A stretch of DNA of 28,390 bases. It comes from Candidatus Hermodarchaeota archaeon. Its GTDB lineage: Archaea > Asgardarchaeota > Lokiarchaeia > Sigyniarchaeales > SOKP01. Below the pieces are notes generated by a model, which saw only the letters and a program-made list of their open reading frames with translations, did not search any database and had not been told where the DNA came from. Location of the stretch: assembly GCA_048885925.1 (NCBI GenBank), contig JBHLLG010000035.1, forward strand, positions 1-28,390, in the 5' to 3' direction. Shown here piece by piece: positions 1-20,200 of this stretch; position 1 is the first letter of the stretch; the number at the start of each line of letters is the position of its first letter. The position numbers and the translations under genes are program-made.

Positions 1-1240
1 GAAGATCTAAGGATCCTTGATTGCTCACACTTTTAAATAAGTATTTCACTTGAAGGGGTAAAATTCATCTCGGGTCCTTGGACTAGTACATTTTTTGCTG
101 ACCAAGGGGCAGAAGTAATAAAGATAGAAATCTGAGTGCAATTCGCACTCCATACTATAACCTCCACCCTTTGGTGAAGCCTTTCGTCTTTTTGTCCTTT
201 ATGATAAAACTATATTTCCATTATTCTCTATTCTAAATAGAGGAAAAAAATCGGTTTCACTTGACTTAAAAAAGGAAGAGGGAAAGAAAATATTTAAAAA
301 GTTAGTGGAAAAATCTGATGTATTAGTAGAAAATTTTGTTAAGGGAACGATGGAAAAGTGGGGATTAGGTTATAATATCTTAAAAGATATTAATCCAAGA
401 CTGATTTATGCTAAAATTTCTGGTTATGGTAATAAGGGTTTAGAAAAATATACTCAGAAAACTGCATTCGATATAATTATCCAAGCGGAAGCGGGAATAC
501 TCGATGCTTTCGGTTTTAAAGAAGGACCTCCAAAATTACCTATAGCAGATTATACAGCAGGGCATATTGCCGCTATTGGGATTAGTCAAGCACTATATTA
601 TAGGGAAAAAGCCGATAAAGGTCAATTTATTGATATCTCAATGCATGATATTATGTTTGCTTTAAATATAAGAGCACAGGCCAGAGAATTTATACCAAGA
701 GCTAAAAATGTTGATGTTGCATCTAAATTTCTCCCAGTTTATAACCAATACCAATGTAAAGATGGTTTAATTGTCTTAACTACCCTTACAGAAAAACAGT
801 GGATTAGATTATGTGAGCATGTTTTAAAAAAACCAGAACTACTTAATGATGCTCGATTCGGTAACATAATAAAAAGATTTGACTATATTGATTTATTTGA
901 TAAAATTATTGAAGATTGGTGTAAAAATTTAACTAGAGATGAAGCAATTAAGCAATTGGAAACCGTCAGAATTCCGTGTGGTAAAAATTTGCGAATTGAT
1001 GAAGTTCATGATCATCCTAATCTTAGAAAAAGAGGAATGTTATGTGATCAATTTGATTTTAAAAAATTTGGGGTGGAAAAAGCTACGATCCCAAATCGCT
1101 TAGTTAATTTTTCAGATACTGTTGGATCTGTAGAAACTCCTGGACCAGAATTTGGTGCCAATAATGAAGAAATTTTCTGCAATTTATTAGGGTATAGTAA
1201 GGATGATATTAAAAATTGGAAGGGGAAAAAAATTATCTGA
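1..1240 (+). CDS. Family III CoA-transferase (CaiB/BaiF), 5' end outside the window, split into three exons (<1-28, 62-129, 161-1240)
   Basis: Joining the exons gives EDLRILDCSQFISGPWTSTFFADQGAEVIKIEPPPFGEAFR...NRGKKSVSLDLKKEEGKKIFKKLVEKSDVLVENF, matching the CaiB/BaiF N-terminal consensus (LD.S..(L/I)(A/S)GP, AD.GAEVIK.E.P, NRGK(K/R)S..LDLK, DV.VENF). Downstream are ISGYG and PIADYTAG (catalytic Asp). The product is 391 aa within the window. The ORF track (305-1240) covers only part of exon 3. Confidence 0.92.
29..61 (+). other. Putative BHB-type mRNA intron 1 (33 nt, contains in-frame TAA at 34-36)
   Basis: Central helix GCUC(23-26)/GGGU(56-59), 3-nt bulges ACA(27-29) and AAA(60-62), intron stem C30-G55, U31-A54, U32-A53 plus AAGU(39-42)/ACUU(48-51), exon-exon helix 6-16/72-82. 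Cutting after the 2nd bulge nucleotide (after 28 and 61) gives tgc-tca-caa-ttc-atc = CSQFI in frame. Confidence 0.82.
130..160 (+). other. Putative BHB-type mRNA intron 2 (31 nt, contains TGA at 133-135 and shifts the frame)
   Basis: Central helix AUAG(124-127)/CUAU(155-158), all Watson-Crick. Bulges are AAA(128-130) and AAC(159-161). Intron hairpin GAGUGC(134-139)/GCACUC(145-150); exon pairs G123-C162, A122-U163 and 102-109/167-174. Canonical cuts after 129 and 160 give gaa-cct-cca-ccc = KIEPPP and restore the frame of 305-1240. Confidence 0.88.
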
Positions 1241-1329
1241 AGAAATAAGAAAATAAGAAAAAGAAGGATGAATTTTAATATTTAAAAATAAATATTTAGA
1301 AATATTTCTTTAAAAAAAAGTGCAGTATA

Positions 1330-13995: not shown

Positions 13996-14020
13996 CATTA
14001 TACAAAAAGTTATTGATAAT

Positions 14021-14095
14021 AGGCCCGTGGCCCAGACTGGATAAGGCGGCAGCCTCCTAAGCTGAAGATCGGGGGTTCAAATCCCCCCGGGCCTG
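14021..14095 (+). tRNA. tRNA-Arg(CCU), intronless, CCA not encoded
   Basis: Acceptor stem AGGCCCG(14021-27)/CGGGCCT(14088-94), D-loop with GG, anticodon loop CTCCTAA (CCT at 14056-58), T arm GGGGG-TTCAAAT-CCCCC, discriminator G. Confidence 0.96.
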
Positions 14096-14148
14096 TTATT
14101 TCTTGTTTTCGAAACTTTTTATATAATATCTTTTTTTTATTTGAACTT

Positions 14149-17225: not shown

Positions 17226-20200
17226 ATGGCGGTTAATAAAGAAAAGTTAAAACCAGACATTTCTGAAGACAGATGTCTATTGATACTAGAAAATGCTAGT
17301 GATTTAATAGGTATAATAAATCGAAATTTCAAGTTTGAGTATATTAATCAACAAGCATGTATAGATATTCTAGGTTATACAAAGGAAGAAGTAATAGGAA
17401 AATCTCCAATTGATTTTGTTTCTGAAGATGATAAACAAGGAGCATTTAAAGCTATGATTTCTGCTTATAAAAAAGGTGGAGGATTAGGTGAAATTAGAGC
17501 AAAGCATAAAAATGGAGATTATATTTGGTTGGAAGTTAAAGGAAGATCTTTTTATGATAATCTCGGGAACTTAAAAGGTGTTATTCTTGCTAGGGATATA
17601 ACTGAAAAAAAGAATTTGGAAAAAAAACTAAAAGAATCGGAGGAGAATTATAGATTAGTTACTGAAAATTCCAATGATGTTGTATCGATTCTTAATAGAA
17701 AATTCAAGGTTGAATTTATAAATGAGCGAGCTTTAGAAAAAGTTTTAGGATATTCAAAAGAAGACATGATTAAAAAGAAGGGTATATGGTTTGCGCATCC
17801 CGATGATCGAGAAAGAATTTTCAATGAATTTGTAAAAGTTTTTGATGGAAGAGAATTGATAACAGAAGGTAGGTTGAAACACAAAAATGGAAATTATATC
17901 TATACTGAATTCAGTGGAAATCTTTTTTACGATGAAAGAGGTAATCCAAAATTTCATTTAAGCGTAAGAGATATTTCAGAGAGAAAGAAAGCGGAAGATG
18001 AGCTTAAACAATCAGAAGAAAAATTTAGGGCAATTACTGAGCAATCATTCATGAGTATATTAGTTATACAGGATGGTTTTATAAAATACTTCAATGATCG
18101 TGTATCGCAATTAAATGGATATTCACGTGAAGAAATAGAAAAATGGGGTCCATATGAGTTCATGAAGGTGGTTCATCCTAATGATAAAAGTTTTGTTCTG
18201 GATCAGGCCAAGAAAAAGCAAGCAGGAGAGAAAGATGTTATTCCTCAATATAGATATCGCTTAATAAGAAAAGATAAAGAAATTAGATGGATTGAAAATT
18301 TTTCAAAGACTATTAATTTTGAAGGAAGACCGGCAGATTTAATCACCTCTATAGATGTTACAGATAAAATAGAAGCAGAAAGAAAGTTAAAGGAATCTGA
18401 GGAACGTTATCGTTTAATCGCAGAAAATTCAGATACAGTTATTTGGTCTACAGATATGAATTTGAATATGACGTATGTAAGTGCTAATAGCCCTAAGATT
18501 CTTGGTTATACTGCTGAAGAAGCAATCAAATTACCAATTAATAAGAGTTTAACCCAAGAATCTTTAAAAACAGTCACACAGATTTTTAAAGAAGAATTAA
18601 GAATTGAGAGAAAGAAAGAAAAAAATTTAAATCGTTCTCGCACATTTGAAACAGAACAAATTCATAAAAATGGTTCCATAATACCTGTAGAAATGACAAT
18701 AACATTTCTACGTGATGATAATTGTAAAGCCATCGCAATTCTCGGTATTTCAAAAAATATCTCCGAGCGTAGAAAGGCAGAAGAAGCAATAAAGATTGAA
18801 AAGAAATTTACGGAAGATGTGATCAATGCTTCAAATGACACGATTTTTGTATTTAATCCTCAAACAGGAAAAGCGATTCAGTGGAATAAAGCTTTTAATC
18901 AAGTGAGTGGGTATTCTGACGAAGAAGTAGCTTCATTGAAGGCTCCTGAATCATATTATAGTGAAGAAGATTTAATGAAAGCTGAAAAAGCAATACAAAA
19001 AGTATTACAAGGTGGAAAAGCAACCCTTGAAATGAAATTAATTACAAAAGATGGTTCTAAAATTCCATATGAGTATACAGGAACAGCACTTAAAGATACA
19101 GATGGAAATTTACTAATTGTATCTATTGGTAGAGACATTACCGAAAGAAAGGAAATAGAGCTAAAATTGAAAGAATCTGAAGAAAAATTTAGAGCTTTAG
19201 TTGAAACTACGAGTGATTGGATTTGGGAAGTCGATACAAACGGTATTTACACGTATTCTAATCCTAGAATAAAAGATATATTAGGTTATGAAGTCGAAGA
19301 AGTAATTGGAAAACATCCATTTGATTTAATGCCGAAAGGAGAAAGTGAACGTATAGAGATTATTTTCCAAAACACGAAACAAGAAAAAAATTCTCTTTTA
19401 AGTTTAGAAAATGTTAATATTCATAAAGACGGTCATTTAATCACACTTGAAACTAGTGGAATTCCTTTTTTTGATAAAAAAGGAGAATTACTGGGTTATA
19501 GAGGGATAGATAGAAATATAACAGAAAAAAAGCAAGCAGAAATTAAATTAAGAGAATCAGAACAGCTTCTCAAAGAAAGGGTCAAAGAGTTAAACTTATT
19601 GTTTGAAATTTCTAAGATTGCCGAAAATCAAAACTTATCATCTCAGGAATTCATAAAAGAGGCTATAAATCTTATTCCTACAGCAATGCAATTCCCAGAA
19701 TTAACAAGTATTCGTATAATATTTGATGATTATGAATTTAAATCTGAAAATTTCAAAAAAACAAAGAGGAAAATAGGAACTCAAATTAATATAAATAAGA
19801 AACGACTAAATATCGAAATTTATTATATAAAAGATTATCTATTCCTACCAGAAGAGAAGAATTTATTAGATGAAATCGGAAAACGGTTTAGAATTATCTT
19901 AGAGAAAAAAGAATCAGAACAAAATAGAAAGCTTGCTCGAGAAGAACTAGAAAAGTCCTTTGAAAAACTCAAAGAACTAGAAAAAATTATTAATAATAGC
20001 CCTGGTGTGTTATTTCTATGGAAAAATTCCCAAGGATGGCCTGTAGAATTTGTTTCTAAAAATGTAGATCAATTTGGGTATACTCAAGAGGATTTTTATT
20101 CTGGAAACGTTATCTATGGAGAAATTATACATCCTGATGATTTAGAAAGAGTTTCTGAAGAAGTAAATACGTATAGTAATGAAGACATCAATGAGTTTGT

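Follow-up and report, generated by a model that had tools for sequence, protein, structure and literature searches.

The window analysed here covers bases 1-28,390 of contig C35 in a 3.9 Mb genome with 30% G+C, which is that of a Promethearchaeota (Asgard) archaeon. Bases 1-1240 of the forward strand, on which all features of this locus lie, code for a family III CoA-transferase (Pfam PF02515), and the coding sequence is interrupted by a 33-nt insert at 29-61 (intron 1) and a 31-nt insert at 130-160 (intron 2). Intron 2 is the main subject of this report. From its sequence motif, its presence and absence among orthologs and an in-frame stop, it is very probably a bulge-helix-bulge (BHB) intron. 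The gene begins before the contig, since the window starts at position 1 of C35, and exon 1 (1-28) is clipped by the contig end. About five codons are missing, judging from the orthologs, which begin M-x-K-I-F-E just upstream of the part of exon 1 that the window holds. Exon 2 (62-129) has 68 nt and encodes (Q)FISGPWTSTFFADQGAEVIKIE, and exon 3 (161-1240) has 359 codons plus stop.

Exons 2 and 3 are in different frames, with the 31 bases of intron 2 between them. In a profile search, the frame 161-1237 matches PF02515 positions 50-366 with an E value of 1.2e-76, and 21 codons at 67-129 match positions 13-33. The exon 3 match begins at its residue 17, leaving just 16 residues for profile positions 34-49, so the PF02515 match runs on across the junction from exon 2 to exon 3, as in a full-length family III CoA-transferase. 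Deleting 130-160 joins GAA to CCT and gives ...GAEVIKIE|PPPFGEAF..., in frame with the open frame to 1237. The undeleted sequence has a TGA at 133-135, inside the insert and in the upstream frame, and the exon 3 frame is closed by UAA (158-160) immediately 5' of 161.

Promethearchaeota/Promethearchaeia orthologs number 31 at 70-84% protein identity, of which 30 are readable at the site, making 31 readable genes with the window. A 30-31 nt insert lies directly after the same GAA codon in 17 of these (16 and the window), and the other 14 are seamless, reading GAA|CCN (or TCA, AGY, GCT) with no extra base. The orthologs derive from many separate assemblies, and sister genomes show the same picture of presence and absence. 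The inferred cuts at 129|130 and 160|161 reproduce exactly the junction of the 14 seamless orthologs, in agreement with the original prediction, which had placed them at a KIE|P boundary of the protein. From the DNA alone, two further placements of the cuts, one and two bases leftward, yield the same product. Mean column identity is 0.69 in the insert interior and 0.90 in the last six insert bases, compared with 0.91 and 0.86 in the two exons.

The insert and its flanks can form a BHB motif, and the elements described in the original prediction (the central helix, the two bulges, the internal hairpin and the distal helix) are all in the sequence. The central helix has four Watson-Crick pairs between AUAG (124-127, in exon 2) and CUAU (155-158, in the intron and part of the conserved insert end). 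It is set between the bulge AAA (128-130), with its inferred cut at 129|130, and the bulge AAC (159-161), with its cut at 160|161. Two 3-nt bulges on opposite strands with a 4-bp helix between them are found in all 17 insert-bearing species, and both bulges begin with A in every one. The internal hairpin (134-150) consists of GAGUGC (134-139), the loop AAUUC (140-144) and GCACUC (145-150); a hairpin is predicted in all 17 species, with a loop of mostly 5 nt. The distal exon-exon helix joins CCAAGGGG (102-109) to CCCUUUGG (167-174) through eight pairs, among them the wobble G106-U170. The fold energy of region 95-180 is -27.4 kcal/mol (z -3.97), a stability that none of 200 shuffles matches. 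Genome-wide, a loose BHB rule accepts 424,673 of about 4.4e8 (place, length) pairs, or about 1e-3 per pair. Since three cut placements are equivalent, the probability of a chance motif at a junction that the orthologs fix independently is about 0.003.

Covariation was scored on two sets of orthologs. The full set has all 17 rows, with only the exon-constrained central and distal helices scored. In this set 95.6% of the central helix cells are paired. The first pair of the helix is G-U in 11 species, G-C in two and A-U in one, with a mismatch in three, and the third pair shows a double change from A-U to G-C in ortholog L044, the one pair changed on both sides on 17 rows. The second set consists of the ten rows that align without gaps, leaving out the four inserts of 30 nt and three of 31 nt whose hairpin is in a different register, and it includes the intron hairpin. 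Here 94.2% of cells are paired and five of 12 pairs have changed on both sides, four of these being among the six pairs of the internal hairpin. None of 500 shuffles reaches any of five measures, and slid partners are only 27-59% paired. Compensatory changes of the kind expected for a BHB intron are thus seen in the ten-row set, and the signal is weaker on all 17. This conservation of the motif in 16 other species, with compensatory changes, bears out the claim of a BHB intron whose removal is required for translation.

Synonymous sites in exon 2 appear to agree with the motif. The Lys codon that supplies the partner of C162 is AAG in 17/17 insert-bearing genes and in 5/14 insert-free genes (p 1e-4, kinship ignored). 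The codon after it, for Val or Ile, ends in A in 16/17 insert-bearing and 5/14 insert-free genes, again with kinship ignored, and the sole insert-bearing exception carries a compensating change in the intron.

Several observations weigh against a BHB intron at this site. The strict hBHBh' form with flanking helices is absent. Outside the bulges only G123-C162 (G-C in 17/17 species) and, in the window, A122-U163 are paired on the exon side (122-123), and inside them only U131-A154. Loops separate these short flanking pairs from the 6-bp hairpin and from the 8-bp distal helix. The motif is therefore a relaxed BHB, with directly flanking helices of only 1-2 bp; the description "near-canonical" in the original prediction is to be read in this sense. 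The minimum-energy fold of 95-180 keeps the hairpin and the distal helix and pairs the centre differently. The free fold draws the BHB in only two of the 17 species, and constraining the fold to it costs a mean of 2.3 kcal/mol over the 17 (-14.7 compared with -17.0). The three mismatches in the central helix are G-A. Covariation on 17 rows is modest: for four measures, 24-35 of 500 shuffles score at least as high as the real alignment, and for the measure of further pair types 359 of 500 do. Kinship confounds the synonymous contrast: only five independent pairs lie on well-supported branches, with a median sign-test p of 0.25, although about three of the five go in the expected direction and essentially none in the opposite one. 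The distal helix had been offered as support for the intron. It exists, and both arms pair in the minimum-energy fold, but it is not intron-specific, with 6.9 of eight pairs formed in insert-bearing and 6.6 of eight in insert-free genes. It arises from the conserved DQG and PFG codons, and may have rendered the site permissive. Pfam models detect no second (beta) EndA subunit in this genome. No RNA run is listed as containing window positions 1-1300, and in four metatranscriptome runs of the same studies no reads cover the stretch at 80% likeness, which says nothing either way. Ortholog L057, which carries both introns, has an exon 3 frame of only 80 open codons, owing to a frameshift, a misassembly or a genuine break.

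The genome encodes enzymes that could remove the intron. There is one EndA gene, of 198 aa, on contig C22 (PF01974 at 101.7 bits, PF02778 at 33.8 bits) and one RtcB gene on contig C12 (569.6 bits). In the primary transcript, exon bases 124-127 would pair with intron bases 155-158, leaving bulges 128-130 and 159-161 on opposite strands, and the 6-bp intron hairpin and the 8-bp exon-exon helix (102-109/167-174) would clamp the motif. EndA would then cleave each bulge behind its second base (129|130 and 160|161). The same cut after the second bulge base is made in tRNA introns. In the ARMAN-2 EndA-RNA structure, as described in the relevant part of PMC12397907, cleavage is at the A14-A15 bond, with A13 as the stacked bulge base; if A13-A15 are interpreted as bulge bases 1-3, this places the cut behind the second of them. 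RtcB would ligate GAA to CCU, giving ...VIKIE-PPPFGE..., and the 31-nt intron would be released. The portion of PMC5829648 on this subject describes Asgard EndA as a broad-specificity (alpha-beta)2 type with an L1 loop, going with relaxed motifs, and such an enzyme would suit the relaxed BHB of intron 2. We infer cleavage, ligation and constitutive splicing.

Without splicing, translation would end at UGA 133-135. An in-frame stop in the upstream frame is present in all 17 inserts, including the four of 30 nt. The strict dependence on splicing in the original prediction is thus upheld through the stop, but not through the frameshift that it had also invoked, as the 30-nt inserts keep the frame. 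The same prediction suggested that removal might be regulated, making a true BHB intron an on/off switch for the enzyme. Strict dependence on removal would allow this, and two introns in a short stretch might be expected to multiply a partial splicing efficiency. On the other hand, the sequence points to no sensor, the intron interior varies freely except for the hairpin, and any such control must be dispensable because 14 of the 31 orthologs do without the intron. Regulated removal therefore appears unlikely, although it fares better than the other alternatives.

The reading frames on both sides of the insert are conserved as protein. Exon 2, with 22 codons, has a dN of 0.070 and a dS of 1.26 over 136 pairs of the 17 insert-bearing genes (dN/dS about 0.06), and is under strong purifying selection. 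Exon 3 is intact at 358-360 codons in 16 of the 17 insert-bearing species. With a stop-bearing spacer between two protein-conserved exons in 17 species, the spacer must be removed or skipped. These data bear on the possibility that the insert is never removed, being either an inactivating scar or the divide of a gene made in two separate pieces. Gene finders report only a 311-aa frame from GTG 305, as expected of a broken gene, and the further break in exon 3 of L057 points the same way. Neither a scar nor a split explains why 17 species with up to about 30% protein divergence keep the insert together with a selected upstream frame and, in 16 of them, an intact downstream one. In addition, the junction falls inside the conserved N-terminal part of PF02515, between positions 33 and 34, and the head of exon 3 has no start codon. 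A scar or split gene is very improbable.

Skipping by the ribosome, with the RNA uncut, is slightly less probable still. It could take the form of programmed frameshifting or of a hop like that in phage T4 gene 60, where a 50-nt gap is bypassed in translation and matching take-off and landing codons flank the gap. Both gaps are short and untranslated, with a stop near the start and a hairpin; in intron 2 the stop is one codon past the junction and the stable hairpin lies behind it. Unlike gene 60, the CoA-transferase has no matching codons, since GAA precedes the gap and UAA (158-160) precedes the resume site, and it is the exon pairing with the 3' end of the gap that is conserved. A single frameshift cannot join two frames that are closed by UGA 133-135 and by the UAA before 161. 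Bypass also leaves unexplained the compensatory complementarity of the last intron bases to exon 124-127, and the same bulge geometry in inserts of unrelated genes of the same genome (see below). An assembly or sequencing artefact, which might be suspected 130-160 bases from the end of contig C35, is refuted by the same insert, with diverged sequence, lying mid-contig in 16 other assemblies, and has next to no probability.

Intron 1 (29-61) has a helix between GCUC (23-26) and GGGU (56-59), with bulges ACA (27-29) and AAA (60-62), and the BHB rule also picks it out (a=23, L=33). Its splice gives TCA C|AA TTC, the Ser-Gln-Phe of seamless orthologs (TCN CAA TTY). It is present in nine of the 31 readable orthologs, the window included. 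The free fold contains an 11-bp exon-exon helix, 6-16/72-82, of which 8.2 of 11 pairs form in the nine orthologs that have intron 1 and 6.4 in the other 22. There is no overlap between the helices of intron 1 and those of intron 2, as the original prediction had said. Since intron 1 lies 68 nt upstream of intron 2, the CoA-transferase message would need two splices.

The distribution of the two introns was compared with an exon 3 tree of 33 rows, which came from a quick search and leaves many forks open. On this tree 11 changes are required for intron 2 and six for intron 1. With a four-state labelling, the well-supported branches alone force at least five changes for the intron-free group. 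Because inserts on distant branches are visibly homologous, with the same ends and the same hairpin place, we infer for intron 2 one old gain followed by repeated precise losses. Transfer between strains is a possible alternative for the patchy distribution.

Two further genes of this genome have inserts of the same type. A Rab-like GTPase gene on contig C12 has a 31-nt insert with a canonical hBHBh' motif at 62467-62497 (reverse strand; 1667-1697 in locus L078), whose removal restores the TIGVDF switch motif. This intron is found here and in one of 22 sister genomes (L099), where the central helix has a compensatory change from U-A to C-G. A 4Fe-4S dicluster-type protein gene on contig C31 has a 32-nt canonical BHB intron at 18957-18988 (reverse strand; 357-388 in locus L104), and the free fold draws its two bulges. 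Splicing restores CNGCAFCIRAC (CxxCxxCxxxC) and a frame of 185 codons, compared with 184-188 codons in relatives. The gain looks recent, as none of the 13 readable relatives has the insert; their exon 1 is 95-98% identical, with one at 89%. The motif itself was used to find the GTPase and 4Fe-4S introns, which therefore cannot test it independently, but their seamless orthologs are independent.

Searches of the genome for more introns of this kind gave little. A census by BHB geometry and a restored open frame had 1884 matches and 1826-1897 with slid partners, with no excess at any score. Allowing shorter exons and asking for an alignment to a paralog across the junction left 64 loci, compared with 56 and 51 decoys; most of the 64 are gene starts with junk upstream "exons", and only the GTPase and 4Fe-4S genes held. 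Filters for GC content and start codon gave 173 matches compared with 154 and 174, and lost the true cases. A motif-free census of adjacent frames matching one paralog yielded 33 pairs, mostly in-frame stops or separate compared with fused genes. One such frame pair, on contig C90, was rejected as an intron, being two genes with their own start. No other copies of intron 1 or intron 2 were found in this genome.

Other types of element were also considered. An Rfam search of 1-400 had no match up to E = 1. A group I or group II self-splicing intron was rejected, as there is no Rfam ribozyme core in 1-400 and 31 nt is far too short. The hairpin motif GCAWWTCGC is not the signature of a repeat family, with 28 matches where about 32 are expected by composition, and 11 for the reversed motif. 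A mobile intron associated with a homing endonuclease was likewise rejected. There is no room for one inside, and a scan of 79 flanking open reading frames (ORFs), taken from 126 of at least 90 aa in the 31 loci after antisense shadows were removed by eye, had a LAGLIDADG_3 domain (E 1.2e-7) in only one ORF, the upstream side of the window itself being clipped by the contig end. That ORF (L038 1-1020, forward strand) lies just upstream of a CoA-transferase gene that carries intron 2 only.

A BHB intron in a protein-coding message is a rarity in archaea. According to the sections of PMC2738675 on the subject, archaeal pre-mRNA BHB introns have been confirmed only for cbf5 of Crenarchaeota, a position that this gene has held for more than 20 years. 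The cbf5 introns of Desulfurococcales and Sulfolobales are described there as 16-44 bp long, often relaxed and linked to a heterotetrameric endonuclease (Yokobori et al. 2009, PMC2738675). As far as these sections describe them, the cbf5 introns resemble intron 2 in being short (30-31 nt here) and without an ORF, in an often relaxed BHB that goes with a hetero-oligomeric splicing endonuclease of broad specificity, and in being gained or lost among related species; in both, removal is needed for a functional protein, and the intron misleads gene prediction. Unlike cbf5, which encodes an RNA-modifying enzyme, the host here is a metabolic enzyme of the PF02515 family, and the lineage is Asgard and not Crenarchaeota. 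Two introns lie 68 nt apart in one message, and more such introns are present in ordinary genes of the genome. Splicing of cbf5 was shown by experiment, whereas that of the CoA-transferase intron is predicted from sequence.

Asgard tRNA genes are heavily interrupted, as described in parts of Valentin-Alvarado et al. 2024 (PMC11291895) and of bioRxiv 10.64898/2026.10.13.758758. The passages of these two sources that match a term search mention no protein-coding hosts. From what they describe, the non-canonical tRNA BHB introns are like intron 2 in their lineage, in a size of about 30 nt, presumably in the enzymes that remove them, and in having been gained repeatedly where the sequence can adopt the splicing motif. 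They differ in that the host of intron 2 is an mRNA, with a reading frame and a stop codon at stake. In the genome studied here, aragorn lists many tRNA genes with inserts. A literature search in full texts, with subscription journals and supplements outside its coverage, found no report of BHB introns in Asgard protein genes.

In eukaryotes, HAC1/XBP1 mRNA is spliced by the Ire1 endonuclease together with tRNA ligase or RtcB. As in the mechanism proposed for intron 2, an endonuclease cuts out a small structured mRNA intron, a tRNA-type ligase rejoins the ends, and the reading frame changes. PMC8718801 names a role for RtcB in XBP1 splicing. The CoA-transferase intron differs in that it would depend on EndA and not on Ire1, which recognises two stem-loops and not a BHB. 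HAC1/XBP1 splicing is regulated by stress signalling, whereas the CoA-transferase intron has no sign of regulation.

The mechanism proposed for intron 2 is of a known kind; what is new is the lineage, the host gene and the duplicate introns. Intron 2 may belong to a population of EndA-spliced introns that is turning over in ordinary protein genes of Promethearchaeia (Lokiarchaeia-type Asgard), some of them recent and one old and often precisely lost, with more than one possible per message. On this broader proposal we are evenly divided. If it is true, the closest prokaryotic relatives of eukaryotes would be the first prokaryotes known with gain and loss of mRNA introns, and these introns would use the tRNA-splicing machinery that still serves eukaryotic HAC1/XBP1. 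If splicing is confirmed, Asgard mRNAs would be substrates of tRNA-splicing enzymes, one protein could need two splices, and gene callers would be missing the N-terminus of this CoA-transferase (311 or 359 compared with about 400 codons) and of other genes. The patchy presence of the intron in close species would then provide a natural series for the entry and exit of protein-spliced introns, which is relevant to ideas on how mRNA splicing arose.

Some minor features of the locus and genome were also observed. Orthologs L005, L006, L008 and L015 have an AT-rich box, AAAAGTATTTTAAAAATTTTTAATTT, about 20-45 nt 5' of the start codon, which is probably a promoter (BRE/TATA); in the window this box has been cut off by the end of the contig. 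A tRNA-Arg(CCT) at window positions 14020-14096 (forward strand) is uninterrupted and scores 57.3 bits to the Rfam tRNA model. Five paralogs of a protein of about 660 aa share the position of a single in-frame TGA, PTDDC[AGS]I-TGA-[VI]L[AG]P; they are located at C11 11393, C47 14341, C5 41033 and C31 17721 on the reverse strand and at C23 12412 on the forward strand. The TGA looks like a selenocysteine codon, in a family that may be HdrA-like.

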